Below are positions 2,607-64,000 of a DNA stretch of 64,000 nucleotides, piece after piece. The stretch's first letter is position 1; each line of letters opens with the position of its first letter. Both the position numbers and the translations under genes were made by a program. The notes below the pieces were generated by a model. It worked only from the letters and a program-made list of their open reading frames with translations. It was not told the origin of the DNA and did no database searches. The stretch is from Squalus acanthias (Eukaryota). Location of the stretch: assembly GCA_030390025.1 (NCBI GenBank), contig CM059431.1, forward strand, positions 145,702,001 to 145,766,000, in the 5' to 3' direction.

Positions 2607-2608
2607 TA

Positions 2609-3744
2609 TGTAAGGGGTATCTTAAGTGAGCGGTTCGAATCGACCAACACCCCTCCGGTTCCTAGACTTTGTGCTTATTTAGGGATTGTGAACAAAATTG
2701 CAGTAAACAGGTTCTGATGAAAGAAATTTACTTTATTGAAAGAAAAAGGTAACAAACTTGAAACACACTTATTACTTAAAACACAGATTCGGGGAACACA
2801 CGGTACAAGCGAGGGAAATGACAATATATCAAACAAAACCTTATCCCTCCCAAATAACTCACTATCTGGCTAGGATTTTGGTTTCAGGAGATCAGGGATA
2901 ATGCTCACCATCGAGTCCTTGACAGGATATTAGAGTCTTTTTTTTTAAAAGGACTCCGTAAGGCCCTTGGTGCTGCGAGGTGTCTGATGGCCACTGCGGC
3001 AGTTGCTCTGGTTTCTTCTTGCGTGCTGATCTCCTGGCCTCCTTCCTCGTGGCTTGTGGTAAGTTTTGCTGGAGCAGGGAGAGAGAGCTGTGTTTGCGTG
3101 GTCAGTCATCCTGAAAAGAGAGAGATTATGGCCCAGGCTTTCAAATTATACTGTATCCTTTTTCGCGCTCAAAACCCCTTACTAAAACGAATTCCTTTTT
3201 GAATGTAAATGACCCTTTGTCTCGTTTTTGGCGGGCTGGCCAGCTCCGATGGTTTTTGCTTAGTGTTAATCGCTTTCCGATTTAAACACCGCCTTATCTA
3301 CGCGCCAAATCTTCACTCTATTGTCCTTCTGTTGGCGGGCTTTTAAAACTTTTCTCTGGATACCTGGTTGATTGTTTTTTTGGATGGGATAATGGCTATG
3401 AAACTGTGTGATCGGTTTTATATTGTCATTGAATCGTTTTTAGATTTCCAGCATTTTGTTTGCCCCTGGGGATCCATATTTGAATGTGTTTGTGAGTTTT
3501 TTTTGGTCGACAGTTTATTGCACTGCCTGGCCACGCCCCTCTGCAGCCTGTGTGTCTGTGGAGGCGTCTTTCCCCAGTAAGATTCGAAAAGTCAGTTTCC
3601 TCAGGTTTTCTTCTTGTGATCTTTAGGTTTTTACATCAAATCACTTCACTGAGGTCCCATCATCCCTTAGTTTGTATGAAAAGTCCAAAAATCACTCCCT
3701 TTAGGGCTCTGTTCGAGTTTCTGGGGGATTTTGCGAAGCCTACA
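2609..3744 (-). repeat. 5' LTR (~1136 bp)
   Basis: TGTAAGG...GCCTACA ends; direct repeat of 55070-56163; minus-strand AATAAA at 2732-2737; abuts the PBS. Confidence 0.93.
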
Positions 3745-4850: not shown

Positions 4851-5261
4851 CGCATCTTCCCCTTTGCTTCCCTTTCAGCATTCCGTAGGGACCGCTCCCT
4901 CTGCAACATGGTGCAGATCGGAACAAAGTGTTAAGCTGCGAGTTTGGTGAGTGAGGGAGTGAATCTTAAAGGTCAATCTCTTGTTTTTATATACAATCTT
5001 GTCTTGTATGCTTGCAATGAGCATTTAACATAAATTGAAATGTACTCTTTCAAGTTTTAAGTTTCTTCCAGGCTTGGGCAGGGCTAAGCAAGCTCTATGC
5101 TGGAGAGCAGGTGAGAGCAATTAATTAATTAACTCGTCTAATCTGGTTCTGTAACTGCCAGAGAGCTCACTTACTTAAATTTCAGCAGTATAAATAAGGG
5201 AAGCTAGAGTGCTTTATGTCACGGAGTGCAGATCGGAACACAGTGGTAAGCTGCTAGTTTG

Positions 5262-5374
5262 GTGAGTGAGTGAGTGAGTGAGTGAGTGAGTGAGTGAGTG
5301 AGTGAGTGAGTGAGTGAGTGAGTGAGTGAGTGAGTGAGTGAGTGAGTGAGTGAGTGAGTGAGTGAGTGAGTGAG
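5262..5374 (+). repeat. (GTGA)n microsatellite in the CR1 5'UTR
   Basis: About 28 perfect tetramer units. Confidence 0.97.
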
Positions 5375-5630
5375 GGGAGTGAGGTGTTCCTTTCTTTCTC
5401 TATCTTTCTCTATCTTTGTCAGCTTCCAGGAGAGCAGGCGCTAAAAAGCTGCACAAGAGGGGACAGAGAACCTGCGGTGAGTATTTCTACAGTATTTCTA
5501 CATTCCAGTAGCTAAAGTAAAAGTAAGGTCTCTAGTTTAGAGTAAGTAGTGTTTCAAGGGAATAAGGTTCCTAGTGTATTTAATATTCTTTAATTTAAAG
5601 GCAGTAAATGGTGTAAATTAAGGGTAGGAC

Positions 5631-6566
5631 ATGGCAGGGCAGCTCGGCAGCCTGGAGTCCTCCTCCTGTGCTATGTTGGAATTCAGCGAAACTTTAGGTG
5701 TCCAGGGCGAACACATGTGCAGGAAGTGTCTCCAGCTGCAGCTACTCGAAATCCGTGTTTCGGAGCTGGAGCTCCGGCTGGAGTCACTGTGGAGCATCCG
5801 GAAGCTGAGATCTTCGTGGATAGCACGTTTAACAAGATGGTTCACATTGCAGGTAAAGAGTGCACAGGCAGACAGGGAATGGGTGACCGCCAGAGAGAGT
5901 AAAAGAACTGGGAAGGTAGTGCAGGAGTCCTCTGCGTACATCTTCCTCTCAAACAGATTTTCCTTTTTGGATACTGCGGGGGGAGATGGTTTCTCAGGGG
6001 AATGCAGCAGGAGCCAAGTCTGTGGCACTACGAGTGGCTCAGCTGCACAAGAGGGGAGGAAAAAGTGTGGGAGAGCAATAGTGACAGGGGATTCTATCGT
6101 AAGGGGAACAGATAGACGTTTCTGTGGCCGCAGACGTGACTCCAGGATGGTATGTTGCCTCCCTGGTGCCAGGGTCAAGGATGTCACTGAACGGCTGCAG
6201 GGCATTCTGAAGGGGGAGGGCGAACCGTCAGAGGTCGTGGTTCACATTGGTACCAACGACATGGGTAGAAAGAGGGATGAGGTCCTGCTACAAGTATTTA
6301 GGGAGCTAGGTGGCAGATTAAAAAGCAATACCTCAAATGTTGTAATCTCTGGATTACTCCCGGTGCCACGTGCGAGTGAGTATAGGAATAGGACGATAGA
6401 GCAGATGAGTGCGTGGCTAAAGAGTTGGTGCAGGAGGGAGGGCTTTAGTTTCCTGGATCACTGGGTCTGCTTCTGTGGAAGGTGGGACCTGTACAAGTCG
6501 GACGGGTTACACCCGAACCGGAACGGGACCAACATCCTTGCGTGGAGGTTTGCTAGTACTGTTTAA
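5631..6566 (+). CDS. CR1 ORF1: Cys/leucine-zipper N-terminus plus SGNH/GDSL esterase domain
   Basis: CRKCLQLQLLEIRVSELE, GDSIVRG, HIGTND, DGLHPN motifs. Confidence 0.88.
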   Translation: MAGQLGSLESSSCAMLEFSETLGVQGEHMCRKCLQLQLLEIRVSELELRLESLWSIRKLRSSWIARLTRWFTLQVKSAQADREWVTARESKRTGKVVQESSAYIFLSNRFSFLDTAGGDGFSGECSRSQVCGTTSGSAAQEGRKKCGRAIVTGDSIVRGTDRRFCGRRRDSRMVCCLPGARVKDVTERLQGILKGEGEPSEVVVHIGTNDMGRKRDEVLLQVFRELGGRLKSNTSNVVISGLLPVPRASEYRNRTIEQMSAWLKSWCRREGFSFLDHWVCFCGRWDLYKSDGLHPNRNGTNILAWRFASTV

Positions 6567-20751: not shown

Positions 20752-22585
20752 TTCTAACATTACTGGAGTTGACCCTAATCTAACATTACTGGTGGTGACC
20801 CTACTCTAACATTACTGCTGGTGACTCTACTCTAACATTACTGGTGGTTACCCTACTCTAACATTACTGGTGGTGACCCTACTCTAACATTACTGGTGGT
20901 GACCCTACTCTAACATTACTGGTGGTGACCCTACTCTAACATTACTGCTGGTGACTCTACTCTAACATTACTGGTGGTGACCCTACTCTAACATTACTGG
21001 TGGTGACCCTATTCTAACATGACTGGTGGTGACCCTACTGTAACATTACTGGTGGGGACGCTACTCTAACATTACAGGCGTTGTCTCTACTCTAACATTT
21101 TGGTGGTTTCTCTACTCTAACATTACTGGTGGTGATCCTACTCTAACGTTATTGGTGGTGAACCTACTCTAACATTACTGGTGGTGACCCTACTCTAACA
21201 TTACTGGTGATGACCCTACTCTAACATTACTGGTGGTGACCCTACTCTAACATTACTGGTGGTGACCCTACTCTAACATTATTGATGGTGACCCTACACT
21301 AACATTACTGGTGGTGACCCTACTCCAACATTACTGGTGGTGACCCTACTCTAACATTACTGGTGGTGACCCTACTCTAACATTACTGGTGGTGACCCTA
21401 CTCTAACATTACTGCTGGTGACTCTACTCTAACATTACTGGTGGTGACTCTACTCTAACATTACTGGTGGTGACCCTGCTCTAAAATTACTATTGGTGAC
21501 CCTGCTTCAACATTACTGGTGGTGACCCTACTCTTGCATTACTGTTGGTGACTCTACCCTAACATTACTGGTGGTGACCCTACTCTAACATTACTGGTGG
21601 TGACCCTACTCTAACATTACTGCTGGTGACCCTACTCTAACATTACTGGTGGTGACCCTACTCTACCATTACTGGTGATGACCCTACTCTAACATTACTA
21701 TTGGTGACCCTGCTCTAACATTACTGGTGGTGACCCTACTCTTGCATTACTGTTGGTGACTCTACCCTAACATTACTGGTGGTGACCCTATTCTAACATT
21801 ACTGGTGGTGACAATACTCAAACATTACTGGTGGGGTCCCTATACTAACTTGACTGGTGGTGACCCTACTGTAACATTACTGGTGGTGACGCTACTCTAA
21901 CATTACAGGCGGTGTCTCTAGTCTAACATTTTGGTGGTTTTCTACTCTAACATTAATGGTGGTGATCCTACTCTAACATTATTGGTGGTGAACCTGCTCT
22001 AACATTACTGGTGGTGATCCTGCTCTAACATTACTGGTGTTGACCCTACTCTAACATTACTGGTGGTGGCCCTACTCTAACATTACAGGTAGTGATCCTG
22101 CTCTAACATTACTGGTGGTGACACTGCTCTAACATTACTGGTGGTGACCCTACTCTAACATTACTGGTGGTGAGCCTACACTGACATTACTGGTGTTGAC
22201 CCTCCTCTAACATTACTCGTGGTGACTCTACTGTATCAGTACTGTGTTAACCCTACTCTAACATTAATGGTGGTTCCTGTACACTAACATGACTAGGGTT
22301 GACCCTACTCAAACATTACTGGTGTTGACACTACTTTAACTTGACTGTGGGTGGCCCTAGTCTAGCATCAATGGCTATGCCTCTACTGTTACATTACTGC
22401 TTGTGACTCTACGATCATATTACTGGTGCTTACTTGGCTCTAATATTACTGTACGTGACCCTAATTTAACATTGTTCTTGGTGATCCGATTCTAATAATG
22501 CTGCTGTTCTTCCCAAATGTTACTGCTGCTAACAATACTCTAAGCTATTGGGTGGTGATTCCTCTCTACCATTACTGCTGTTGAC
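20752..22585 (-). repeat. 26-bp satellite array, inverted orientation
   Basis: (CTCTAACATTACTGGTGGTGACCCTA)n. Confidence 0.96.
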
Positions 22586-36925: not shown

Positions 36926-38037
36926 ATGTCAACAGCAGTAATGTTGGAGAGGAGTTACCACCCATTAACTTAGAGTATTACCAGCAGTAACTTTTGGGAA
37001 CAGTCACTACCAGCAATATTAGAGACGGATCACCACGAATAATGTTAGATTAGGGTCACCTACAGTAATATTAGAGCTATGTGAGCACCAGTAATATGGT
37101 CGTAGAGCCACCAGAAGTAATGTAACAGTAGGACCAAAGCCATTAATGTTAGAGTAGGGTCACCCCCAGTCATGTAAAAGTAGGGTCACCACCAGTAATG
37201 TTTGAGTAGTGTCACCCCCAGTCATGTTAGTGTCCAGGCAAGAGCAGTAATGTTAGAGCAGGGTCATCACCAGTTTGTTAGAATAGGTGCAACACCAGTA
37301 ATGTTAGAGCAGGTTCACCACCAGTAATGTAAGAGTAGAGTGAACACCAATAAGGTTAGAGTAGAATCACCACCAGTAAAGCTAGCGTGGAGCCACCACC
37401 AGTAATGTTAGAGTAGAGTTACAACCAGTAATGTTAGAGTAGGGTCACCACCAGTAATGTTAGAATAGGGTCACCACCAGTAACGCTAGAGTAGGGTCAC
37501 CACCAGTTATGTTAGAGTAGGGTCACCACCAATAATGTTAGATTAGGGTTACCACCAGTAAGGTTAGAGTAGTGTCACCATCAGTGTTGTCAGAGTAGAG
37601 TAACCACCAGTAATGTTAGAGTAGAGTCACCACCAGTAATGGTAGAGTAGAATCACCACCAGTAATGTTAGTGTAGGGTCACCATCAATAATGTTAGAGT
37701 AGGGTTACCACCAGTAATGTTAGAGTAGGGTCAGCACCAGTGTAGTTAGAGTAGAGTCACCACCAGTAATGTTAGTGTAGGGTCACCACCAATAATATTA
37801 GAATAGGATCAGCACCAGTAATGTTAGAGCAGAATCACCAGCAGTATAGTTGGAGTAGCGTCACCACCAGTAATGTTTGAGTAGAGTCACCACCAGTGAT
37901 GTTAGAGTAGGGTCACCGCCAGTAATGTTAGAGTAGGGTCACCACCAGTAATGTTAGAGTAGGGTCACCACCAGTAATGTTAGTGTAGCGTCACCACCAG
38001 TAATGTTAGAGTAGGGTCACCACCAGTAATGTTAGAG
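36926..38037 (+). repeat. 26-bp satellite array (mirror of 20752-22585, shorter)
   Basis: Tandem 26-nt units. Confidence 0.95.
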
Positions 38038-43419: not shown

Positions 43420-45300
43420 AAATGGTTTATGTTCCCCCTGGTCCCAATTTATAATTAAACAGTTACAGCATTCCCCATAATTCCCCTGTCCTCTCTTTCG
43501 AATTAAAAAGTTAACATCTTCCCATTACTTCCCCTGTCCTCTATTTCTAATTAAACAGTTACTGTGTACCCCTAAATTACCCTCTCCTCTATTTCTAATT
43601 AAACGGTTACTGTGTTCCCCTAAATTACCGTGTCCTCTATCTCTAATTTCACAGTTACTTTGTACCCCTAAATTACCCTGTCCACTATTTCTAATTAAAC
43701 AGTTACTGTGTTCCCCTAAATTACAATGACCACTATTTCTAATTAAAAAGTTACTGTGTTCACCTAACTTACCCTGTCCTCTATCTCTAATTACACAGTT
43801 ACTCTGTTCCCCTAAATGAACCTGAACTCTATCACTAATTACACAGTTACTGTGTTCCCCTAAATTACCCTGTCCTCTATCTCTAATTACACAGGTACTG
43901 TGTTCCCCTAAATTACCCTGTCCTCTATCTCTAATTACACAGTTATTGTGTTCCCCTAAATTACCCTGCCCACTATTTCCAATTAAACAGTTACTGTGTT
44001 CAGCTAAATTACCCTGTCCTTTATCTCTAATTACAGTTACTGTGTTCACCTAAATGACCCGGTACTCTATCTCTAATTACACAGTTACTGTGTTCCCCTG
44101 AATTATCCTGTCCTCTGTCTCTAATTAAACTGTTACTGTGTTCCCCTAAATTATCCTGCCCTCTATCTCTAATTACACAGATACTGTGATCCCCTAAATT
44201 ACCCTGTCCTCTATCTCTAATTACAGAGCTACTGTGTTCATCTAAATTACCCTGTCCTCTATCTCTAATTACACAGTTACTGTGTTCCCCTAAATTAGCC
44301 TGCCCTCTATCTCTAATTACACATTTACTGTGATCCCCTAAATTACCCTGTCCTCTCTCTCTAATTACAGAGTTACTGTGTTTCCCTAAATTACCCTGTC
44401 CTCTATCTCTAATTACACAGTTTCTGCGTTCCCCTAAATTACCCTGTCCTCTATCTCTAATTACACAGTTATTGTGTTCCTCTAAATTACCCTGTCCTCT
44501 ATCTCTAATTAAACTGTTACTGTGTTCCCCTAAATTACCTTGTCCTCTATCTCTAATTAAACAGTTATTGTGTTCCCCTAATTTACCCTGTCCATTATAT
44601 CTAATTAAACTGTTACTGTGTTCCCCTAAATTACCCTGTCCACTATTTCTAAGTAAACAGTTACTGTGTTCCCCTAATTTACCCTGTCCATTATCTCTAA
44701 TTAAACTGTTACTGTGTTCCCCTAAATTACCCTGTCCTCTATCTCTAATTACACAGTTACTGTGTTGACCTAAATTTCCCTCGCCTTCATCTCTAATTAC
44801 ACAGTTACTTTGTTTACCTAAATTACCCTGCCCTCTACCTCTAATTAAACTGTTACTGTGTTCCCCTAAATTACCCTGTCCTATATCTCTAATTACACAG
44901 TTGCTGTGTTCCACTAAATTACCCTGTCCTCTATACCTAATTACACAGTTACTGTGTTCCCCTAAATTACCCTCTCTTCTATCTCTAATTGCACAGTTAC
45001 TGTGTTCCCCTAAATTACCCTGCCCTCTATCTCTAATTACACAGTTTCTGTGTTCCCCTAAATTACCCTGTCCTCTATCTCTAATTACACAGTTACTGTG
45101 TTCACCTAAATGTTTCCTGTCCTCTATCTCTAATTACACTGTAACTTTGTTCGTATAGTTCCCGTTATTCTCCTGATAAGTAAGCAACTGTTATATTCAC
45201 CTAAGGTCTCCTTTATTCTATTTTTAAATAAAGAGTTGCTGCCTTCCCCTCAATTTACCTGTCCTGTAATTTAATTAAACACTTACTGTATTCCCGTGAA
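43420..45300. repeat. 48-bp minisatellite (CTCTATCTCTAATTACACAGTTACTGTGTTCCCCTAAATTACCCTGTC)n
   Basis: About 35-39 tandem units; produces 16-aa repeat ORFs on both strands. Confidence 0.96.
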
Positions 45301-46489: not shown

Positions 46490-48020
46490 TGCAGCGATCA
46501 ATCTATTATAATGAGCAGAGCATCATAGTCAAGTTTCTGGTCAATGGTGAACCCTAGGATATTGATGGAGGGATATTCAGTGATGGTAATGCCGTTGAAT
46601 GTCAAGGGCCAGTGGTTAAACTTTATTTTGTTGGAGATAGTCATTGCCTGTCACTTGTGTGGCGCGAAAGTTACTTGCCTCTTATCAGGCCAAGCCTGAA
46701 TGCCGTCTAGGTCTTGCTGCATGCGGGCAGGGACTGCTTCATTATCTGAGGAGATGCGAATGGAACTGAACACTGTGTAATCATCAAGGAACATCCCCAA
46801 TACTGACCTTATGATGGAGGGAAGGTCATTGATGAAGTAGCTAAAGATTGTTGGGCCTAGGAAACTTTTCTGAAGATATCCTGCAGCGTTGTCCTGGGGC
46901 TTTGATGATTGACCTCCAATCACCACAACCATCTTCATTTGTGCTAGATATGACACCAGCCAGTGGAGAGTTTTCCCCCTGATTCCCATTGACTTCAGTT
47001 TTACTCGGGCTCCTGGATGCCAAACTCGGTCGAATGCTGCCTTGATGTCAAGGGCAGCCACTCTAACATCACCGCTGATTTCAGCTATTTTGTCCATGTT
47101 TGGACCAAGGATGTAATGAGCTATGGAGCCCAGTGGACCTGGCGTAACCCGAACTGAGCATTGGTGAGCAGGTTAGTCTTGAGTGAGTGCTTGATAGCAA
47201 TGTCGATGACACCTTCCATCACTTTGCTGATGATTGCGCGAAGACTGATGGGGCAGTAAATGGCCGGGTTGGATTTGTCCTGCTTCTTGTGGACAGGGCA
47301 TACCTGGGCAGATTTCCACAATGTCGAATAGATGCCAGTGTTGCAGCTGTAAAGTTTTAAAAGGCCTAACCCTTATCCTGAGACTATGCTCCTTAGCTCT
47401 AGACACTCCAGCCGGGGGAAACAACCTCTCAGCATCTATCCTGTAAAACCCCTTCAGAATCTTGTATGTTTCAACGAGGTCACCTCTCATTATTCTAGAC
47501 CCCAGAGAGTATAGGCCCATTCTACACAATCTCTCATCATAGGACAGTCCTCTCTTCCCAGGAATCAATCTAGTGAACCTTCGTTGCACCAGCTTCAAGG
47601 CAAGTATATTAGATAAGGAGACCAAAACTGTGCACAGTACTCCAGGTGTGGTCTCACCAAGGCCCTGTACAATTGTAGCAAGATTTCCTTACTCTTATAT
47701 TCCAACCCCATTGCAAAAAAGGCCAACTTGCCATTTATCTTCCTTATTGCTTGCTGTACCTGTATGCTAGCTTTCTGTGTTTCTTGCACGAGGACACCCA
47801 AATCTCTGAACACCAACATTTGAAAGATGCTCACCATTAAATAAAAATCTGTTTTCCTATTCTTACTACCAAAGTGAATAACCTCACATTTCGCTACATT
47901 ATACTCCATCTGCCACAATACTGCCAACTCACTTAGTCTATCGATATCCCTTTGCAGACTCGTAGTGTTCTCCTTACAGCTTACTCTCCCACCTAGCTTT
48001 GTATCATCAGCAAACTTGTA
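46490..48020 (-). mobile_element. LINE family-2 RT fragment (46490-47350) joined to a CR1 RT fragment (47355-48020)
   Basis: ALDIKAAFDRVWH, FINDLP; FADDTKLGG, LEYCAQFWSP. Confidence 0.85.
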
Positions 48021-48021
48021 A

Positions 48022-48737
48022 CGAAGGAGAAACAGCTTTATTAGTAATGTTGTTAGATTTATAATCACGTCCATGGATGGTTCCAATTTTTCAACATTTT
48101 TTTTGCATAAGATACTCTCTAATGTGAAAATCTGGTTTCATGTTTGTTTGGATTAAGTGCGATTGACTCTGTCTAACAGGATCATCTCTTAGATTGAATA
48201 GTTGCAAATCTCCATGGCCTGCTGCACGCCCACAGAGGAGAGTTGCAAATATACAAAATAATCCTGTCTTTTGCGATCTGCAAGTATCTCTGGTGGAGTC
48301 TAAGGTGCTTTATTTCCGGGGTTTGGATTCCACAGATTTGCAGACAGTTTCAGCAAATATAGCAAGGGAGACTTTTTTAGCTCGGTTTTCGATAATTTGC
48401 GGCCCTTTGATGTGTGTCTGAATCAGGGCGGGCCAGGCTCGATGGACACTGGGCAGGATTGGACGGAAGTAAGCTTTCTACAGCCTGAGGGGTGTTCAAG
48501 GTTTGACTGTTCTTTTCGCAGAGCACGCACACGTATTCCCGTCTTGCTGGTGAATTGATCGTGATGTAATAGATGGGTCCAGACCACATCTCGCTGAGAA
48601 TTTATACCCGGAACTTCTGCTCTTTGCTTGATTTGTTTTGACAGTAACTCTATCCTCGCCTGCTGTGTGATTTCTTTTTTTGGACTATCTCTAGTTTCGA
48701 CTCTAAATCGCTGTGTTAAGACACAAACTTTAATAAC
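48022..48737. repeat. ~720-bp unassigned sequence, directly repeated at 54330-55069
   Basis: Colinear similarity from GAAGGAGA.ACAGCTTTATTAGTAAT to TTTAATAAC; paired ORFs 48377-48589 and 54698-54910. Confidence 0.85.
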
Positions 48738-51239: not shown

Positions 51240-54120
51240 GTCCTGGTTGGTCTTTTTGAACCGCTGCAATCCTGTGGTGACGTTGAAAAATCCACTTGCA
51301 GGATTTTAAGTCAGCAATGATGAAGGAACCATGATATGTGTTCAGGTCAGGTTAGCCTGTGATTTACAGGGAAGATTGGAGCAGCGGGTATCTCAGGACT
51401 TTGCTGCTCTTATCCTTATCAATGATGGAGAGAGCTGGTATGAGCGGTGATGTTAATTTAAGCTTGGTGATTTGCAGTGGATAATACAGACTGCAGCAAT
51501 AGTGCACTGATGGTGACCGGTGTGGATATTGTGGATTTGAATCAAGCAGAATGTTTTGCCCTGAATGACGCCGAGCTTTATGGCTGGTGTTGTGCGTGTA
51601 ACCATTTAAGACGAGTGGTGATTATTCCATCACATGCCTAACTTGAGGCCTAGTGAAGAGGCTTTCAGAGATCAGGACGAGAGACACATATCGTGGAGAA
51701 CACAGCCTCTGCCGTTCATCCGCAGTGTTGACACAGCAGGTGCCGTTAATCTTCTGGTCAATGGGCATATCCAGGATGTTGATGGTGCGGCAGTAGGTGA
51801 TTTTGTTGCCGCAAAAAGTTGGGGGTATTGTTGTGACTTTTCCTGTTGGATCTGGTAATTGCCCAGCACTGACATGGCACAAAAAAATACCTGCCTCTTG
51901 TTAGCACACGCCTGGGAAATGTTCTTGTCCTGAAATAGGCTCTCATGGGCTGCTTCATTATTTTGGAAATGGAGCAGGGCACTGTTGAATTAACAGAGAA
52001 CGGATCGATTCCTGAACTTATGACAGAGCGATTGTTATTTATGATTGTACCTAACCAAGGGTGTAGCCCTGAGAAAGTCCAATTGTGATGCTTGCCCTCT
52101 AACAGCCATGCCCATTTTACTGATAATGATTCCCTTATACCCCCGATAACTATTACCTACGGTTTAACAGGGCTTCTTGATGTTGTCCTCGATCGGATCT
52201 GCACTCATGTCTACGGAAGTTAATCTCACATCTCGTGTCGCATTTTCTCTTATATCCAGGTCTCTATCAAGGCTGTGATGAAGTTTGGAGCTGAGCGGTC
52301 CAGGCTGAGCAGGAACTGATTGTTGGCGAGTCGAATATTGTTTTGTAGATGACCCTCGATAGTTCTACAATTGACTAATTCTATCACTGTATTGATGATT
52401 ATTAAGATATTAATAGGGCAAAAATTGGCTTTGTAAATTGTGTCATTTTCCAATGAACTGAGCAGAAGTCGGAAATTTCTTATTTTATCAGGTATACTAG
52501 TAACACAACTGTACTGGAATAGACTGGCTGTGGGGGTGGTGGTGGTGGTTAATTGTTTTAGGCAGGTCTTAGTAACTACAGACAGATACATCAAGCAATT
52601 AGGAAAGCAAATGTTATGTTTGCCTTTATTACAAATGGATTGGAGTGTAGGATAAAGAAACATTATTGTAAATATATAGGGCCTTGGTGAGACTACACCC
52701 GGAGTACTGTGTACAGTTTTTGTCTCCTTACCTGAGGAAGCATATACTTGCCTTAGAGGGAGTGGAACGATGGCCTGCCAGACTTATTCCTGGGATGGGA
52801 AGGGGGTGGGATTGTCCTATGAGGAGATATTGAGGAGACTATCCAAATATTCCCTAGAGGTAATCTCATTGTAACGTATACAATTCTTAAGAGGCTTGAC
52901 AGGATAAATGTTTAGAGGATGTTTCCCCTGGCTTGGGAGTCTAGAAGTAGGTGTCACTCTCTCAGAATAAGGGGTCAGTCATTTAGGTTCGAGATGAGGA
53001 GAAATGTCTTCACTCAGAGGGTTGTGAATCCTTGCAATTATCTACCCCAGAGGGCTGTGGATGCTCATTCGTTGAGTATATTTTCAGAACAGAGATGGAT
53101 TTTTGGATACTAAGGGAACCAAATAATATGGGACTATTGTGAAAGGTGGACTTGAGGTAGAAGATGAGCCATTATGCTTTTGAAGGGCCAAATGGCAGAC
53201 TCCAGCTCCTATTTCTAATGTTCTTATGTTCTTAACTAGGGTTCTGTTAGGATCAGTTATCTCTGCGGTCAGTTTGTTCCAGTGCTTCCTATTGTCACGT
53301 GCGGAGATCTCCATTGGCTTGACGCTGGGCTGAATGCTTATGGGAGCCACGTTTGCTCGTTAAAATTTCACTTTTGGCTGAATCTACTTCGAACACTGAA
53401 GCCTTGTTTCCATCAGCGGGGTGTCTTGGACTCGCCCCTGCCTGATAATCTCCTGTTGACACTCCCATTAATAAATGGATGTGGCAGGCAGTGTACGCTT
53501 AGTTCTTATTGTTTGGCCGTGGAACACATTAACTTGATCTGCAACACTCTGCTTTTGCCGTTTTGGGTTTAATTGTAGTTTAACTAAGTTAGTGCCTCAT
53601 TCTCAGTTTCAATGCTCTTGTTCCTGTCACGTTATTTAATTGTCCCCAATTAAACCCATAGTTGGAATTTTTACATTATAGTGCCGTTAGATTGTAGAAT
53701 TGTATAGGTCAGGCATCAGACATTGTCGAGGGATATAATTCTGCGAATTTGAAGGGCCCACAACACCTTATGTACGCCCAGTATCTGGCTACTAGCTATT
53801 GCCTCACTGGTAGAACTGCACAATAGAGAGTGTTCTCATTGTGGAGTCCAGACCTTGTCAATAGAAGGATTGTGTGGTGGTTACATCGATGAAAGCAATC
53901 ATCTACAGACGTGTCTCTGACTGGTGCATTATTGAAGATGTGATCAAGTAGGTCACTCCACACTGCCAGTACTCTCAAAGCACATGCAGTAGTCTGGGAG
54001 ACTGCCTTTGTAAATATAATCTGTATCAAGCTGTTGCTTGAGCAATCTGTGGGGGAGCTCTTCCAAATTAGCACCAGTCCCCAGATGGCAGTCAGGAAGA
54101 ATTTTCTGGTTGGGCTGGTC
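51240..54120. mobile_element. Highly decayed minus-strand LINE interrupted by a plus-strand CR1 3' fragment (~52590-53230)
   Basis: YKANFCPINIL and RSAPNFITALI remnants; CR1 FTQRVVN and tail TTCTAATGTTCTTATGTTCTTA. Confidence 0.6.
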
Positions 54121-55069
54121 TGGAATTGCCTGAGTCTTGTCCTGAATTGATGCTGTAGTGTTGTCGATTGGTCGATATTATAGTTCCCTTATTTATTGTT
54201 TCAATCACGTGCTCTGAATACCCCTTTGTTTGTCAGCACAACTGCAGGTCCTTTTTCAGTGAATATACTTTCCCAAGGCCCGTGTTGTCTTTGGCAGGGA
54301 TGATGCCTGCTGGCAATGGAAAGTGAGAACGAAGGAGAGACAGCTTTATTAGTAATTTTGGGAGATTTACAGTCACGACCATTGTTTGTTCCCATTTTTA
54401 AACAACATGTTTTTATATCAGATACACTGGAATGTGTCAATCTGGTTTCATGGTTGTTTGGATTAAGTGCGATTGATTCTGTCTAGCAGGATCATCTCTT
54501 TGACTGAATATTGGCAAATCGCCCCGGCCTGCTGCACGCCCACAGTGCAGAGTTGCAAATATACAAAATAATCCTGTCTTTTTTCTCTCTGCAAGTATTT
54601 CTGGTGGAGTTTAATGAACTTTATTTCCAGGGTTTGGATTCCATAGATGTGCAGACTGTTTGAGTAAATATAGCATGGGACACAACACATTGTCTTTTTA
54701 GCTCAGTTTTCGATAATTTGCGGCCCTTTGATGTGTGTCTGACTCAGGGCGCACCAGGCTTTGCGAAGTCTGGGCAGGATTGGACGGAAGTAGGCTTTCT
54801 GCAATCTGAGGAGTGTTCAAAGGTTGACTGTTCTTTTTGCAGAAGACTAATAATTGTTGCCGGCTTGCTGATGACTTGATCGTGATGTAATGGCTGGGTC
54901 CAGGCCACATCTCGCTGAGAATTTATACCCAGGAACTTCTGCTCTTTGCTGGCCTTGATTTGTTGTGACCGCCACCATGTGCTCACCTGCTGTGCTGTGC
55001 GACTGTTCCGTTTGGACTATCTCTAGTTTCCTCACTAAATCGCTGTGTTGGGACACAATCTTTAATAAC

Positions 55070-56163
55070 TGTAAGGGGTATCTTAAGTGAGCGGTTCGAA
55101 TCGAACAACACCCCTCCGGTTCCTAGACTTTGGGCTTATTTAGGGGTTGTGAACAAAATTGCAGTAAACAGGTTCTGAACAAAGAAATTTACTTTCTTAA
55201 AAGAAAAAGGTAACAAACTTGAAAACACACGTATTACTTAAACACAGATTCGGGGAACACACGGTACAAGCGAGGGAAACGACAATAAATCAAACAAAAC
55301 CCTATCCCTCCCAAATATCCCACTATCTGGCTAGGTTTTTGGTTTCAGGAGATCAGGGATAATGCTCACCAACGAGTCCTTGACAGGATATTAGAGTCTT
55401 TTTGTTTAAAAGGACTCCGGAAGGCCCTTATGGTTTCTTCTTGCGTGCTGGTTTTCTTCCTCGTGGGTTGTGGTAAGTTTTGCTGGAGCAGGGAGAGAGC
55501 TGTGTTCGCGTCGCCAGTCAGTCCAAAGAGAGAGAGATTATGGCACAGGCTTTCAAATTATACTGTATCTTTTTTCGCGCTCAAAACCCCTTAATAAAAC
55601 GAATTCCTTTTAGAATGTAAATGACCCTCTGTCTCGTTTTTGGCGGGCTGGCCAGCTCCGATGGTTCTTGCTTAGTGTTAATCGCTTTCCGATTTAAACA
55701 CCGCCTTATCTACACGCCAAATCTTCACTCTATTGTCCTTCTGTTTGGCAGGCTTTTAAATCGGTTCTCTGATTACCTGATTGATTGTTTTTTTTGGATG
55801 GGATAATGGCTATGAAACTGTGTGATCGAAATTAAATTGTCATTGAATCGTTTTTAGATTTCCAGCATCTTTAAGCCCCTGGGGATCCATATTTGAATGT
55901 GTTTGTGAGTTTTTTTTTTGGTTTTGTCGAGAGATTACTGCACTGCCTGGCCACGCTCCTCTGCAGCCTGTGTGTTTGTGAAGGCGTCTTTCCCCAGTAA
56001 GATTCGAAAAGTCAGTTTTCTCAAGGTTTTCTTCTTGTGGTCTTAGGTTTTTACATCAAATCACTTCACTGAGGTCCCATCATCCCAAGTTTGTATGAAA
56101 AGTCCAAAAATCACTCCCTTTAGGGCTCTGTTCGAGTTTCTGGGGGATTTTGCGAAGCCTACA
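55070..56163 (-). repeat. 3' LTR (~1094 bp)
   Basis: TGTAAGG...GCCTACA; direct repeat of 2609-3744 with substitutions and a ~40 bp indel. Confidence 0.93.
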
Positions 56164-56175
56164 TACCCCACTTTG
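56164..56175 (-). promoter_or_regulatory. Polypurine tract
   Basis: Minus strand CAAAGTGGGGTA immediately precedes the LTR TG. Confidence 0.7.
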
Positions 56176-56448
56176 AAACTAACACTGACTTAGTATCATT
56201 AACAGGTGAGCAAAATTTCCGATCCCCGAAAACCAACCTTCCCCTGTATTACCTAAACTAAAAACCCAAACATTAATTCCCCTTTTGAAAGTGGTGTTTC
56301 AGGTACATACAGGTAAAAATCAATCTTTATTTCACATCCAAGCACAGAGAGAGTACAACTCCCTGCACAGCTTGGAAAAAAACACATCATACACATCGTA
56401 AAAATGACACAACACACATACAATTTTTTTTTAATTAAAAGACGAAAT

Positions 56449-58723
56449 TCAAGTTTCGTTCCATCCCTGGCCACAGCCTTTCTTTTGATGCACTTCCCAA
56501 GTCCCTTCGTGTCTGGAGCGGAGCTCCCCGTCCCTTCCCCTGCACTTTGTACACAGCAGGTAGAGAACTATCCCGAGCTGGCAGACCACCAAAAGATGGG
56601 AAGCCATCCTGATCCAGGACGGCACCTCTATATTCTCGAAAATATCTAACCAGGGTGGAACTACTATATTCAAAATCTCTGCCCCTATTTCAACTGTTTT
56701 CTGTTCTAGGGTGTAGAAATATTTTTGTGAAATCTCTACAGCTTTAAGTAGGATGGTAAGATGTTCGGGTAGAGTGGGAATTTTATATCCAAAGTAAGTC
56801 ACATACTTTTGCAGGTTGGTGATGTTTTCTGTTACAGTGACGTGAACAGTGGGGGGTTCAGGATGGGGGACAATCCGTTCCTGGGCCACTTGAACTTCTG
56901 CCTCGGGTTTAAAGCATAAACTGCTGTCGCTTACCGGACACCAGAAGTGTCCATGCTGGTAGTGAGTCGCACCTGTGGTGACACAATATGTCCCACCGCC
57001 TATATATGCTACCTTTGGGGAAACATGGCCGTGTGCCATCACCTCCATGGTACAATTGATAGGTCGTGCTCCAGCAACTTTAAACCCGCACTGTGGTTTG
57101 GAATAGGCGTTCAAGTGCTGGGGACACAGTATTATGTGTGAACCCCGGCTCCGGCACCCGGAGAGGTCAGTACCTGTCATGGCGTGCTCCCACTTTATGA
57201 CATAAGGTGGGACCGCTGTAAAACGGATGTGTGCACCCACTTGAATGACTCCAATGTTCTCCACCCTGTATACCGTTACGGGTCGGGCTGTCTCACTCAT
57301 GACCGGCATTCTCACTACTATTCCCATGATAGTGTGATTTGAACGCCCACAATATATTGGGACAGGGTAGGCTTCAGAGGCTAGTCGAAATTGGCATGGG
57401 CTCAGAGAATTACTAAACGGGTGGAGGGCTGCAAGGTGCTTGTTGCTGATACAGGAGGGGACTAAACCTTGCTTTAAATCCTCCAGGTTGCTACGGCCCT
57501 CGACAGCAACCATGCCCCGTACAGCACACACACCTCATTCTGTGCAGCCTGATCCGATGCATTCCTATCCTCCCGTATGAGTGCATTTACTGTTTTGACA
57601 TGCCTTTACTATTCTGCAATAATTTCCTTTAAATGAACCGTCATAGCTTGCTCCTCATGTAGCTCTGAGCCTACCACTGTGTTCCCATCCTTCAGGATCT
57701 TTCCTAACTGGGTTTTAACCATTTATCTGTGTCTGTAATTCCATGTCATCCCGTGCCCATAGGGTTATCAGGGTGTATTCTGTATAGCTCTACTTTGCCT
57801 ATATTGGCAAAATCAAATTCGTAAAATTTCCGAAACAGTTCCTTTAGCAGGGCCTGGTACAGCTGCTCCGTCTCCTTAGGACACCACTCAGGTAAGTATA
57901 CCTCGGTAAGGTTTAATATTACTGAAGCTACTGCATAGTGTACCCCCTGGTATAGTACCTTTTCGTTTGGTACTAGGACTAACCCATTCCCTGGTCCCTT
58001 GGTGGTGGTAGGGCACTTTTCTTCCAGGGTTTTCGGTACCTGGGTCGTGGGTAGGGGCTTCGGGTGTGTGCCACGAGTTCAGTGGCATTAACTGGGACCG
58101 GAATGTATGGGACCACGCACCCATGCAGGCTAGAATCCCACCCTATCCCCTCCCCGGCATCTTTCCATTTGCTGGAGATGATGACGGATACCCCTGTGGG
58201 GCAGGCTTCCTCTGATCCCCACATACAAACATAGACTCCCTGTTCTGAAACCCACCACTTATCCCAACAAACACTAACTCCTCCTTGTGTCCCTGTGATT
58301 GTCCGGTGGGTGTCGTTCCCTAATCGTTCCCAGTGGGCTGAATGGTCCCCTGCGTCCCTGCTCAGCTTCCTGAGCCACCACCACCTATTCAAGGGAATTC
58401 GTCCCTTACAGGTAAGGCACACACGCTTCCCCTCGGTGACACTGACCCTTGTGGCAACGACCTGTATTCTGGGGCATGGCGGGGAGGCCTCCCCGTACGC
58501 GAACCCGGGCTGGTTGGAGTATTTAGTAGAGTTAGACACCAGCCACCCTGGCCACCTTCCCTCGTGGAAGTAGATGGCGAGCTCCTCCACTCCCCGCTCG
58601 CCACCCCCTGTGGTGACGACTGGTGCTCTCACTCCTGAGCACCCATAGATGTCGGAGTCCTCCACGTCACCTCGGTCACCGATGCTCACCCTACCAGGGC
58701 GAGCAGGACCAGAACCTTGTCAT
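56449..58723 (-). pseudogene. env: env: signal peptide, Ig-like domain, F-protein-like ectodomain and TM anchor; frameshifted
   Basis: KVLVLLALVG-VSIG leader; VTEGKRVCLTC..WWW..QGVYVC; GLVLVPNEKVLY..WC..LYQALL; heptad region; IVVRMP..VYRVENIG..VPPY..DLSGC..ILCP..C..C..GGTYC; TM ASHLLVVCQLGIVLYLLC. Confidence 0.8.
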
Positions 58724-59213
58724 CCCGAAGTCCTTTCTGTAGGGGCACACACAAAACATATATCCATGTCCCAAAAAGGTTCTCTGGCTGGATAATTAAT
58801 CAAACCCTTAAACTTAAAAAAAACTCTACAAACAACTAAACTAGCGATAACCATAACTACCAAAACTGCAATTACTTAAAACCGAAAAATTCTGTACATT
58901 TGCCGCCCGTCTCCTGTTTAGTCTCTGCCTTATGTGGCCTCTGGATGGCTTGTACACCTGGGTATAGTGCGGCCTGTTCCGCCGGACCCAGAAGGCCTTC
59001 CTCAAAACCGCTGGGGGTAACTTAACATCCCAGCTGCGTCCTGTACTGCAGCACACTACCCCCTTTTGTGTGACTGCAGCGCCCTCGTTCATATCTGTGG
59101 GCTCCTCCCAGCCTGAGGCTGCGGGCGGGGGACCCTTCTCTCTCTCTTCTTCCAGTACTACCTCTCCTGTGAAACCCTCACTCTTGGAGGCTGCAGGCTG
59201 GGAATCCCCAACT

Positions 59214-62200
59214 TTAGAACGCTCCCTGCTCTTGGTGCTCTTTTTCGGGTTGCAACCCTCTTGGGGTGGGACCTTTAAACAGATACACCTGTGGAGACTG
59301 AAGCCTTTGCTGTGGTGTGCGGGGAGACCTTCTTAGGGCTCTGGCCACTGGGGGTGTGCTTGAGTCCCACATAATCGGTGGAGTGACCTCTCCTGTGAGA
59401 CAACACACTGTCCCTCCCGCTGCAGCTTGTGCGTCTGCCACAGCTGCGGCTGGCTGAGGGTTTCTAACTTGGGGGCCATCCAGCTTTGCCGGCTGTTCCC
59501 TTTTAGGTTTAAACAGTTTGCATTGTTTGATGTGAAACCACGTTGTACGGCGGGGCATCTTTATGGCATAGACCATGGGGCTTGCCTTGTCTACAATGTT
59601 GTAGGGCCCCATGTACAATGGTTCGAAACTCCCTACCCGAGCAAAATTTCTAACCATGACCTGATCTCCAACCTCCCACTCGTGGTGCTTGCGGGGTTCC
59701 AGCAGCAATCGGTTACCCCAATGCTGTTTTCCCATGTTACTCGCAGCCTGCCAGTGGACCTTTTTAAGGTGGTCCAACAGATTCCTGACGAATATGTCCC
59801 GGTTCACCTCCCTGAGCTGCCCTTCCCTGAGCACCGGGGCTAGCACATAGGTGGGGGTCCGCATAATCCTGCCAGTCATGAGCTGGTGTGGGGAATACCC
59901 CGTGCTTTTTGACTGGCTGGCCCGGATCCCCATTAGGACCAACAGTGAGGCGTCTACCCACTTTTTGGGTGAGTCTCCCATCTCCTTTCGCAGCCTTTCT
60001 TTGATGGTACGGTTTAAACGCTCCACAATCACTGATGACTGTGGGTTGTGGGCGATGTGCCATTTCCCTTCTATGCCGAGTACCCTGAGGATCTCTTGCA
60101 TGACCTGCACAGTAAAGTGACTCCCCTGGTCTGACTCCACATACTGTAGGAGCCCCCATCGTGACAACACTTCCCTGACCAGGATCCTGGCTGTACCCAA
60201 AGCGGTAGCTGTTCGACATGGAAAAGCTTCCACCCACTTTGAGAACACATCCACCAGGACTAGGCAGTATTTGTAGCCACCCTGAGCGGTGGGTAGGTGC
60301 CCGATGTAGTCGACCTGGATCGACTGCCATGGTCCCTTTACCCTCCTGATGTGTCCCATAGATACCTTCCTTTTCTGTGGGTCAGTGTTGTTAGCAGCAC
60401 ACACCAGACAGCCTGCACAGAACTCGCGGACATCCTCCCTCAGTCCTGGCCAACATCCTGCCTGTTCCACCCGCTGCCAGGTGGTCTCAAGCCCGGGATG
60501 CCCCGCTCCTGGACCCTCACGGGTCAGTTGGAGGATTTCCCTTCGGTGCTGCTGCGGCACTACCCATTGTTCCCCACTGAACAGCATCCCTTCTTTGCGG
60601 GTGATGGCTGCTGCGCCGTAAGGGCCCTCTACCTTCTCCCCTCTAGCCAGCGTTTCCAGGACAGTTTTTAGGATGGGATCCCGTGCCGGGACCGTCTTTA
60701 GGTCCGGGGTCAATGCTACCCCTGCACTCCCTTGGGTCCCTCCTCTGCCTCTGATTGATGCTACCGGGTTTGATCCATATGGATCCAACAACGTGCCTGT
60801 ACTGGCACCCTCTTTGGCCAGCATGTCGGCTTGGTGATTGCCCTCTGCGCGGGGCTTTACCTTGGAATGGGCCTTCACCTTTTGCATGTATACCCTACCT
60901 TCCTCCCCTACTGCCCTCATGATTTTCTCCAACAGAGCCTTGATGGCCAGGGATCTCACATCAGCGGAGGCGTATCCACAACGGGACCAGATGGCCAGGT
61001 ACTCTGTACACGAATTGCATGTGAACATGCTGTCCGAGCAAATCGTGTATGGCGTAGGGAATTCCTTGGGGTGTGTGACTACATACACCACCGCAGACAG
61101 TTCAGCCTGCTGGGCACTCATGGTGCTGGGGAGCTTGATTGCCAGAGCAATGCCTGCCTCTGGGTCATAAATCCCACACCCTGTGGGTCGTTTGCCAGCT
61201 GATACTGTGCTTGAACCGTCCACGTAGATTTCGCGGCCTGTGGGGTGTATCCCAGCTCGCAAACCTATGTTGACTTCCCATACCCCTTCAACGGAACTCC
61301 GGTGGGCTGTCCCTGAGTAAATCATGTTTGCTACGAGCTTTGGCTCGCAGAGACCTTTTACCCTCAGATCCATTTGTGAGAGAAGCAGGGTCCAGCGAGC
61401 AATGCGAGCACTGCTCACTGTCCCATCTTTAATTCTCCCATCCAAGAGCATCTGGGTGGGCGTGTGGTGAGTGAGGAGTGTGATGGGAGAGGTGCCTGTG
61501 AAGATCAATGATCTTTTCACAGCCCAGTGAGTGGCTAGGAGGTGCCTCTCACAGTTGGAGTAGCTCCTCTCCACATCAGTGAGCATTCTGGTGAAGTAAA
61601 CCACTGGTCTCAGCTTGCCATGCCTGTCTTGGAGCAGCACTGTACTCAGACTGTCCCCACTGGCTGCTACCTCCAGGAAAAACTCTACCCCTCCATCAAT
61701 GGCCCCTAGAGCCATGGCGGTTTGCAGATCTCTCCTGAGTTTCAGAATGGTAGCCTCGCAACCCTCATCCCAAACCTGCTCCACTCCCTTGTGTAGGAGT
61801 CGGAGCAGAGGGGCTGCTGTGGCTGCGTAATCCTCAATGAAATCTCTGCAGTACCCAGTTAGCCCTAGAAAAGACCTTACCCCTGTAACTGTGTTGGGGG
61901 CTGGTAACTCCTGAACTGCTTCCCTTCTAGCTTTGTCAATGGCCCTCTCCCCTGCTCGCACAGCCAGGCCCAGGAATTTGACTTCCCGCTGGCCAATCTG
62001 TGCCTTCTTTAGGTTTACCGTAAAGCCCTCTTGCCTGAGCAGTTCCAGCAGTTCTGCAGAAGGAGACCATGTTCCTCTCACTCATCGGTAAAGAGGATTA
62101 GGCCGTCCACATACTGGACCAGCTGATGGGCCTGCTGAAGCCCTTCAAGCAATTCACCATACATTGGGGAAACATGCTGGGCTGTTGTGGGAGCCCTAGG

Positions 62201-63168
62201 GCAGACAGTTCCATGTGGACGGTTGGCCTTTAAATGTAAAGGCGAACTTGTACTGATCCTTAGAGGGATGGACCAGAAACCGTTGGAAATATCCAGCACT
62301 GTAAAGGTGGTCGCAGATGCCGGGAAACTTCCAATGAGGTCGGCTACGGCTGCAACCGTGCGGGCACAGGCGGGGATGTTTCGGTTGAGTACTCGATAGT
62401 CTACTGTGGCCCTCCAGGATTTATCTGGTTTTCTAACCGGCCACAGTGGGGAGTTCACATGGGTAACTATAGATCTCAATATCCCCTGCTTGACTAAAGA
62501 AGTCAAAGCCGTTTCAAGTCTGTCTAAGCTTCCCTGGGGAAGTTATACTGCTTTTGTGGGCGGTTCATGGGGTCCCCACTGACACTAACCTCGACCCCGG
62601 TTACACTCCCACAGTCGTGCTTGTGAGTGGCAAATGCTGCGAGGTTTTCCGGCACAAATGCCTGGTACTCCCTTGGAGTGTGACTGACCATGAGTTCTAG
62701 GTCGTAACCATCCTTTGGTTTTACTGTGCACAAGGTCCCCTTGCCTTGTGCCTCCGGGATGACTGCTACCTCACTACTATTTTGGGTACATGCTCCCCAT
62801 AGACAGTGGTTCCTTAAATCCACTAAAATCCTGTGGCCTGTGATAAAGTCGGCCCCCAGGATCCCCTTCCCTTCTTGCTCCCACTTCATTAGGACACAGG
62901 TCCACTTGGTGTGGAGCGTTCACAAATGAATGGACAGCGGGATGGAGAATGAGCCAGCCTGCTCGTTACCTGTGAATCCCACTAGGCTGCACGGGACCCC
63001 GTTATACAGAGGTGAATTGGCTGGGTTATCTGAATAAATGAGGGTGCTCGAAGCTCCTGTGTCTAACAGATAGTTCCCTTCTACCTTTTCTACCTCCATC
63101 TTAACATGCGGTATCTTCCAGGCATCATACTCGAGGGGACACAGGTAGACCGGCTGTGCTAGCTCCAG
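59214..63168 (-). pseudogene. pol: pro-pol: protease, RT (YVDD>YVDG), tether RNase H, second RNase H, integrase with GPY/F; frameshifted
   Basis: 955-aa ORF 59214-62081 plus ORFs 62078-62506 and 62524-62889; LDISNGFWSIPL, VRSFLGLTGYCR, IYVDGSS, AQQAEL, SDS, VKAH, GNHQAD, GH..C..C, VDYIG, SDQG, VERLN, GPY. Confidence 0.93.
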
Positions 63169-64000
63169 TCATGCCTCTGGGTTGAATGGGGCAGATGGGA
63201 TCAGAGCGCCAGTGGCTGTAGCCACCTTCCCTGGGCCACAAACAGGACTCTGATGGCCACTACTATTATGTCCAGTGTGAGGGAAGACGTCGGAGCCTCT
63301 ACTTTTGGGGCAGGAGTTGGGGACTTCTTTGCTAGGCTCTCCTTCCAGGGATTCCTACAGTCCTTTCTCCAGTGCCCAGTCTTCCCGCACCCGAAGCAGC
63401 TACGCTTCGTGTCGGAAGGTTTACCACCTTCCTGGTGCCACTCCTTCTTATCCTGACTGGGCTTTATCTCATGCACCTTCCCTTTCGGTGGGGTGTCTTC
63501 ATCTCCCCTAACGTTCCAGTAGGCTATTGTCAGTTGCCCTGACCACTGCCTCCTCGGTGACCCGGGGCTATCTTGGTCAAACCAAAGCTCAGCCTTGGCT
63601 TTGACTCGTGGCAAGCTGTTTGCCACTACTCTACGGAGCCAGTGGGCCAGCTCGTCCCGGTTCAGGTAAGCCCTGTCGAGAGCCCCATTACAAGCACCCC
63701 TGTACACCGGCCACAGCCTGTCTGCGAAAACCTGTTGGGTCTCCCCTGCGAGCTGCACTGTTTTCTCCACCCGGGAGAAAGGACATCCCTCAGTCATTCC
63801 CATGGCCTCTAATACTTCCTCCCTGAAGGCAGCATACCCGGTCTGTCCTCCCTTGCTCTCAGTAGAGAGTGACTGGTACAATTTGCCATCTAATGAGAAC
63901 AAGAGCAATTTTGCCATATCGGCATCGTCAATCGTAATGGCTCCTGATTGTTCCACCTCCATGAAGTGGACTGAGGGGTCTTCCTTTTGGGTAAGTTTAC
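63169..64000 (-). pseudogene. gag: gag 3' half of copy B (runs off the right edge)
   Basis: ORF 63201-63962, near-identical to copy A. Confidence 0.9.

Follow-up and report, generated by a model that had tools for sequence, protein, structure and literature searches.

A predicted F-type (class Ib) envelope protein with a probable Ig-like head in an endogenous retrovirus of the cartilaginous fish Squalus acanthias

The genome of Squalus acanthias carries the decayed env gene of an endogenous retrovirus (ERV) of cartilaginous fish that appears to combine a canonical polymerase, likely of the snakehead retrovirus (SnRV) group (class III), with an envelope protein (Env) predicted to be of the F type (class Ib) and to bear a probable Ig-like head. 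We assign this reading a probability of roughly 0.8. The gene is located in a 64,000-nucleotide stretch of contig CM059431.1 (positions 145,702,001 to 145,766,000, forward strand), which is hereafter called the window. A sequence-only reading of this DNA had proposed that the Env ectodomain, placed at 56560..58010, follows the blueprint of paramyxovirus F proteins rather than that of retroviral SU/TM proteins.

A provirus on the minus strand occupies the window from position 55069 to past position 64000, with its 3′ LTR, env, pol, and gag in that arrangement (Table 1). The 5′ LTR lies ∼1 kb beyond the window end (L013 positions 1990–3123). The two LTRs are ∼6% different (distance 0.063, with 20 gaps), and the flanks of the provirus (window 55069 and L013 3123) form no target-site duplication, unlike those of sister copies. 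This provirus may be a recombinant of two insertions. Given the distance, the gaps, and the flanks without a target duplication, its LTR pair is unusable as a clock.

Table 1. Features of the provirus and of its env gene in the 64,000-nucleotide window
Feature	Position in window	Strand	Remarks
5′ LTR of near-identical duplicate provirus, one repeat unit (62.4 kb) upstream	2609..3744	−	
3′ LTR, TG...CA, ∼1.1 kb	55069..56163	−	88% identity to own 5′ LTR
Polypurine-tract-like run adjoining 3′ LTR	56164..56174	−	Read in sequence
env, broken: five small frameshifts and one 74-nt deletion	56449..58723	−	
TM anchor, then tail of ∼30 amino acids	56551..56616	−	
HR2/HRB-like helix	56671..56772	−	Model helix 663–694
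Cysteine-rich beta domains (equivalent to F domains III/I/II)	56870..57440	−	pLDDT mostly 70–96; aligned to F
HR1/HRA-like helices, two frameshifts in window copy	57490..57750	−	
Site of 74-nt deletion that removed RQRR furin site and fusion peptide	57749..57752	−	
F2-like block: long beta strand and HRC-like helix	57833..57991	−	pLDDT 81–93; aligns to F2
Probable Ig-like domain in Env N-terminal extension	58225..58473	−	Pfam Ig_3 E 0.0035, below cut-off
pol: PR, RT, tether, RNase H, integrase; frameshifted	59214..63170	−	Pfam; 57%–72% to P0008
gag 3′ part, one CCHC zinc knuckle, runs past window	63201..64000	−	PF00098 above cut-off

The window covers roughly a single unit of a tandem duplication (unit length 62.4 kb) that contains the whole provirus. 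The two stretches that were compared are 99.7% (window 53001–62384 versus L014) and 98.3% (window 618–6000 versus L013) identical, and the env gene of the duplicate provirus differs from the window env by one substitution and three gap bases. This arrangement reflects either a segmental duplication that happened recently or an assembly that contains a doubled haplotype. Other repeats in the window include a 26-bp minisatellite in four arrays of both orientations (3746–4848, 10104–13060, 20753–22473, and 37003–38037), a 48-bp repeat array (43452–45152), and decayed minus-strand fragments of a LINE-type reverse transcriptase (46651–48137), the last judged by eye from ORF translations.

All of the Env peptides quoted in the sequence-only reading were located on the minus strand where they had been placed, distributed over three frames. 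The F2-like block, the HR2-like helix, and the TM anchor are present (Table 1); the HR1-like helix contains DDMELQTQING (57718–57750), VKTQLGKILKDG (57684–57719), and VKTVNALIRE (57570–57599), and the cysteine-rich motifs run from IVVRMP (57304–57321) through GGTYC (56983–56997). However, the proposed extent is too short: env starts near position 58723, ∼700 nt further upstream, and this 5′ part encodes a signal peptide and ∼220 extra residues. Relative to one natural open copy, the window env carries five small indels that shift the frame, of which two lie in HR1, two in the signal peptide, and one ahead of F2. It also has a 74-nt deletion near position 57751, so the F2/HR1 junction of the window copy is a deletion scar. 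Extra sequence is found at this site in contigs from other sequencing runs. The window env copy is unable to make the protein and belongs to an ordinary dead provirus. A co-opted host gene was considered and rejected for this copy because its env is broken.

At least 113 env copies with 86%–100% identity were found in the 3.7-Gb genome when a 361-amino-acid C-terminal piece was used for searching; this number is a lower bound, as 113 of 9995 candidates were scored and every one matched. The frame is open in 10 of the 113 copies, being stop-free over 799–808 codons. Seven of these 10 were used for comparisons, and each encodes 784 amino acids from the first Met of the signal peptide. The order of signal peptide, RQRR, HR1, HR2, and C-terminal TM is the same in all seven. 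An N-terminal extension of ∼220 residues is followed by the F2-like block from about residue 240, and this F2 of ∼90 residues directly precedes the RQRR furin site, which is at residue 327 in 7/7 copies. Beyond the site, a G/A/S/T-rich peptide leads into long helices and then a beta region rich in cysteines; these are followed by an HR2-like helix, a single TM near residues 733–754, and a short tail of ∼30 amino acids. The segment following RQRR is amphipathic, with a mean hydropathy of −0.09 compared with 0.0 to 0.8 in relatives that have a clear site, and is unusually polar for a fusion peptide. Residues C550, C560, and C584 are kept in 17 of 17 aligned relatives, and cysteines 425, 485, and 607 in 15 of 16. 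No accessory ORFs were seen in the element. The element is a many-copy, abundant, and fairly young ERV. Given its copy number and the 47 Env homologues in a protein library (see below), the coding features of this env are no product of chance. Related contigs are also found in four runs guessed to be RNA, which shows presence only.

Changes among the seven open copies, whose pairwise pN/pS values are 0.27–0.96, were examined by splitting two-state sites into those common to at least two copies and those found in a single copy. The shared changes comprise 25 synonymous and nine non-synonymous differences (omega 0.11–0.15); without CpG sites, the numbers are 17 and five (omega 0.09–0.11, p ≤ 2e-6). 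In contrast, single-copy changes are near neutral, with an omega of 0.67–0.93 that may be biased by the choice of copies with open frames. The purifying selection on shared changes (omega ∼0.1) suggests that Env worked while the family spread, and the overall pattern fits a family whose working Env would have let it propagate by reinfection, with decay setting in once copies had inserted. Of 10 further copies examined, two combine 4-bp target duplications with LTRs that differ by 1.3%–1.6% (distance 0.013–0.016), which indicates that the spread was recent. Among the remaining copies, seven have no 5′ LTR at the expected place and one gave an alignment longer than an LTR.

A search with the Pfam Fusion_gly HMM (PF00523), which the sequence-only reading had put forward as a check, gave no match in the window ORFs, in six proteins from natural copies, or in 43 relatives. 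Searching the PDB with Env, by sequence or by profile, returned nothing at E < 0.1, and a 42-sequence family profile found no F protein. A Baculo_F match in one relative (P0064, E 0.0011) is below the cut-off. In a language-model atlas, the top clusters are those of PF00523 (score 0.93, 201–203 shared features), and Gypsy and Baculo_F clusters score 0.92.

An AlphaFold2 model of the ectodomain of one natural open copy was used for structural comparison. Its mean pLDDT is 58, with values of 81–93 in F2, mostly 70–96 in the beta domains, and <50 in the N-terminal extension, the fusion peptide, and the start of HR1. Foldseek found 235 matches in the PDB at E ≤ 0.001, of which the best is hPIV3 F (1ztm, E 4.1e-11), and 41 of the 41 matches listed are paramyxo- or pneumovirus F proteins. 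The same is true of all 50 rows listed after re-alignment with VIA. The best of these has a Z of 13.2 (rmsd 17.4, 327 aligned residues) and the next 12.8 (rmsd 7.2, 323 aligned), while post-fusion F of Langya virus gives a Z of 12.7 (rmsd 5.4, 318 aligned). The VIA alignments extend from model residue 228 to residues 633–645, without a break between the F2 strand and the last of the cysteine-rich domains, and the F2 match begins at residue 26–38 of the F chains. Since the alignment starts at residue 228, F2 and F1 align as one unit. Sequence identity between Env and F is 6%–14%. The comparison of an AlphaFold model with F proteins that had been proposed, carried out here on a single-chain ectodomain, yields matches to paramyxo-/pneumovirus F at E 4e-11 and Z 12–13. 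Neither a gamma-type TM nor a foamy Env structure is present among the PDB matches listed by Foldseek or VIA.

When predicted viral structures (BFVD) were searched, Foldseek gave 54 matches at E ≤ 0.001. These are led by a lispivirus-type glycoprotein of Sanxia water strider virus 4 (rank 1), a Culex baculovirus F (rank 2), and a fish filovirus glycoprotein, and the first paramyxovirus F appears at rank 10. Retroviral proteins are represented by the Envs of WEHV-1 (Q9WHI8, rank 7, E 1.3e-11), WDSV (A4GTG3, rank 20, E 9.3e-9), and feline foamy virus (rank 49, E 3.7e-4). The SnRV Env is absent among the 50 named or listed rows, and three rows are without a name. A baculovirus F thus stands above the first paramyxovirus F, which comes close to one of the refuting outcomes named in the sequence-only reading, but lispivirus G and baculovirus F belong to the same F-type superfamily. 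For this reason the F blueprint stands, whereas the paramyxovirus-specific part of the original proposal does not. On the basis of the model, Env is predicted to be a fusogen of the F-type (class Ib) superfamily, with paramyxoviruses not singled out as its nearest kin.

It could be argued that the resemblance to F is an artefact of long helices in a model of low confidence, given the mean pLDDT of 58, the high rmsd of several top matches, and the lack of HMM support. However, the matched beta domains have pLDDT values of 70–96, and ∼320 residues superimpose on post-fusion F at an rmsd of 5–7. Moreover, three methods (atlas, Foldseek, and VIA) concur, and the furin site, cysteines, and TM are placed as in F. 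An artefact is highly improbable in our estimation. A gamma-type Env was also considered and was rejected: as the sequence-only reading had stated, both CX6CC and an immunosuppressive domain are absent from the window env, and they are likewise absent from 7/7 natural open copies; the listed structural matches include no gamma-type TM. Neither CX6CC nor R-x-K/R-R is present in any minus-strand frame of positions 56400–58900. The P0069 relative has one C-x6-CC, only within its membrane anchor.

The N-terminal extension of Env probably carries an Ig-like head. In addition to the Pfam Ig_3 match below cut-off (Table 1), Ig clusters are found in the atlas at scores of 0.84–0.85. Folded alone, the N-terminal domain has a pLDDT of 35. 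V-type domains, from antibodies, TCRs, and other proteins, make up most of its best matches, and no match is significant: Foldseek gave no match at E ≤ 0.001, and the best VIA Z of 6.0 is in the range of common arrangements. Weak Ig-type matches precede the F core in several distant relatives (V-set in P0058, Ig_3 in P0092 and P0095), and one Env relative is labelled Ig-like in UniRef. Receptor binding is a putative role for this head.

If Env acts as its predicted fold suggests, the 784-amino-acid precursor would enter the secretory pathway, and furin would cut at RQRR to yield an N-terminal subunit (Ig-like head, linker, and F2) and a membrane-anchored F1-like subunit, with F2 staying interlaced with the beta core, as it is in the F of paramyxoviruses. 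The head would bind the cell, after which HR1 would extend into a trimeric coiled coil. The peptide following RQRR would insert in the target membrane, and HR2 would fold back as the membranes fuse. Trimer formation, cleavage, fusion, and receptor binding by the head are all putative. The predicted nested F2/F1 fold is common to this Env and to paramyxo-/pneumovirus F (hPIV3 1ztm, Langya 8tvg, NDV 1g5g, RSV 3rki; PF00523), and in both a furin site is followed by a fusion peptide (putative in the element Env), HR1, cysteine-rich beta domains, HR2, and TM. Unlike F, the element Env has a polar fusion-peptide segment and an N-terminus that is ∼220 residues longer and includes a probable Ig-like domain. 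It also differs in its low sequence identity and missing HMM match, and in being retrovirus-encoded without a separate attachment protein.

The reverse transcriptase (RT) used for classification was taken from P0008, a full-length close relative of the window pol. Its best matches in the PDB are foamy RTs, with PFV at the top (156.5 bits), and MLV-type RTs (153.1), which practically tie; Ty3 (113) and HIV (at most 64) RTs follow. In RT trees that hold no SnRV, foamy, or Loki references, the element groups with retroviruses against Ty3/gypsy at 100/100 and falls outside the gamma/epsilon clade; this support also speaks against an errantivirus or Ty3/gypsy element, which was rejected. A 37-row tree (again without SnRV, foamy, or Loki) places it as sister to frog and coelacanth elements at 91/82, whereas this link has <80% support in a 21-row tree from which long and redundant rows were dropped. 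The nearest RTs (45%–53%) are those of frogs and the coelacanth. No relative was found in viral contigs scanned with Pol, and consequently there are no named reference retroviruses in the RT trees. A hand count over ∼257 positions, which covered only four RTs from the alignment in the PMC7947760 supplement, gives identities of ∼42% to SnRV, ∼34% to feline foamy virus, ∼32% to Loki-Oja, and ∼29% to MuERV-L.

The gag-pol region forms one frame across a single UGA in two of four copies, and the other two have the same stop context plus a nearby frameshift. At the primer binding site, 17 of 18 nt agree with a genomic tRNA-Arg(TCG), and the SnRV primer is also tRNA-Arg. In the genome, tRNA-Arg(TCG) is located in large tandem arrays with a 1.6-kb period beside tRNA-Ser(GCT) (L030 and G000 contig C26, 39.0–42.2 Mb), and the 3′ end of the tRNA has 434 genome-wide matches. 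Judged from these sequences, the polymerase is likely that of a canonical retrovirus in an SnRV-related class III group. SnRV and the clade Huo ERVs (PMC12193657, PMC8922424) resemble the element in having the nearest RT by hand count and in stop-codon readthrough. The element differs from SnRV, which reads through a UAG stop (PMC13517186), in its use of UGA, in its tail of ∼30 rather than 136 amino acids, and in that no accessory ORFs were seen.

Another explanation is that the element is a lokiretrovirus (lokiortervirus) that extends this lineage to cartilaginous fish, in which case its Env would simply be the known Loki Env. According to Wang and Han (2020, PMC7947760), Loki elements are vertebrate gag-pol-env LTR elements with an F-like Env, and they have a tether and RNase H, as does our element. 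Some relatives of the element are annotated as NYNRIN-like, and the start of its F2 resembles the Loki Env start by eye. However, the tether plus RNase H and an F-like Env are common to other groups and are thus not diagnostic of Loki. The RT has the motif LPQG, whereas the Loki RTs examined have PFG (C/L/M-P-F-G) and a conserved SRWP/SGWP stretch, and its hand-counted identity to Loki-Oja is lower than that to SnRV. The Loki Envs examined in the same source are ∼530–560 amino acids long, start at the F core, and have no Ig-like head, and the lineage is reported there in 0/6 chondrichthyan genomes. No teleost Loki-type protein occurs among the named Env or RT matches. An smc-like gene, which is found in some Loki members, gave no Pfam match in the nine window ORFs scanned. 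We consider a lokiretrovirus quite unlikely.

Foamy viruses are not known to have a zinc knuckle in gag, and they express pol apart from gag. The element, unlike mammalian foamy viruses, has a zinc knuckle in gag and in-frame gag-pol with orthoretrovirus-style readthrough. These differences weigh against the proposal of a foamy-like ERV that carries foamy Env in trimmed form, in which case the class Ib fold would already be known. This proposal draws on the top rank of PFV RT in the PDB, albeit by 3 bits, and on the weak structural match to feline foamy Env (E 3.7e-4). In addition, foamy Env combines a class Ib core with a putative binding module, and does so in a canonical retrovirus (Fernandez et al. 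2024, PMC11468914). The foamy module is inserted between the subunits in that account, whereas the one in our element is appended N-terminally, as in the coronavirus spike. Furthermore, the element Env has a single TM, no receptor-binding domain between F2 and F1, and no membrane-anchored N-terminal leader, and it matches foamy Env far more weakly than it matches F. A trimmed foamy Env is also very unlikely, and an SnRV-related element remains the preferred reading.

The predicted models of epsilonretrovirus Envs from WEHV-1 and WDSV also match the element Env (see above). These proteins are much longer (1159–1317 amino acids), accompany a class I pol, and have no sequence-level match to the element Env. 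They have been described as lacking gamma-type hallmarks (PMC9967133). The model comparisons suggest that the exogenous fish retroviruses WEHV-1 and WDSV may also use a class Ib fusogen.

A library of 1.8 billion proteins yielded 47 Env homologues at E ≤ 0.001; names were looked up for 29 of these and for four others. The named relatives come from sharks and a skate (Pristiophorus, Heptranchias, Heterodontus, Chiloscyllium, Mustelus, Scyliorhinus, and Rhinoraja) as well as from frogs and the coelacanth (Xenopus, Pelodytes, Mantella, and Latimeria). In two frog gene models, a related pol runs into the start of the Ig-headed Env family (P0092–P0058, E 2e-29; P0095–P0047, E 1e-31). The P0069 cluster of Mantella aurantiaca has at least 12 full-length members of 677 amino acids with a distant F-type Env, which points to another young, expanding frog family. 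Pieces of the Env family are also found in host gene models of F-box, cadherin, zinc-finger, and Niban-like types (P0064, a Heterodontus fbxo15 isoform, P0037, P0033, and P0034), and are annotation fusions or exonised env fragments.

The fold does not by itself specify an evolutionary history, and the following alternative concerns only the latter. The env gene could have been captured independently from an F of the mononegavirus or baculovirus type, so that its likeness to other retroviral F-type Envs would reflect parallel capture. The best predicted-structure matches are indeed a lispivirus-type glycoprotein, a baculovirus F, and a fish filovirus glycoprotein, and class III pol with a foreign gamma-type env is documented. 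On the other hand, the association of this pol clade with the Env family is preserved in sharks and frogs alike, and the coelacanth has both; any capture must therefore be very old. Also, no viral F is detectable by sequence in the protein library or with the PDB profile. We give independent capture somewhat less than an even chance.

The origin of retroviral env is treated as an open question in several studies (PMC7947760, PMC9040795, bioRxiv 2021.11.05.467493). F-like Envs have been published for lokiretroviruses, foamy viruses, and the errantiviruses of invertebrates, and the errantivirus paper leaves vertebrate ERVs for a later publication. An F-like Env in a retrovirus is therefore not new in itself. 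In the literature within reach, which excluded subscription papers and preprint supplements and which also included bioRxiv 2023.10.26.564294, PMC12583693, PMC11521997, PMC13709493, and bioRxiv 2024.03.17.585361, we found neither an F-type or Ig-headed Env described for SnRV-related ERVs nor an F fold described for the Env of epsilonretroviruses. The joining of a predicted class Ib core and a probable Ig-like head in the Env of an SnRV-like retrovirus is apparently undescribed. Surveys of env genes in fish, amphibians, and sharks have used gamma- or beta-type baits or have required an ISD plus CX6-7CC (bioRxiv 2021.11.23.469661; 2026.05.06.723177). With such baits or requirements, F-type env genes, including any that hosts may have co-opted, would be missed.

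Among retroviral Envs, a recent structural scheme (PMC11468914) admits only that of foamy viruses to class Ib and assigns orthoretroviral Env to class Ia. This division would be broken by an element of orthoretrovirus style whose Env is predicted to be class Ib, bears the mark of purifying selection, and is present in three vertebrate classes. The epsilonretrovirus matches point the same way. One tentative interpretation, which we would rate at somewhat below even odds, is that the ancestral envelope of retroviruses was an F-type (class Ib) fusogen. This type would have survived in foamy viruses, in Loki elements, in the SnRV-related clade found in frogs, coelacanth, sharks, and skates, and, judging by the structural matches, in the walleye epsilonretroviruses, with the gamma/beta SU-TM envelope being a later replacement. 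The Ig-like head before the F core would then be the receptor-binding solution of this clade, in parallel to the coronavirus spike. The findings suggest that published schemes underestimate how widely the F-type envelope occurs among retroviruses.
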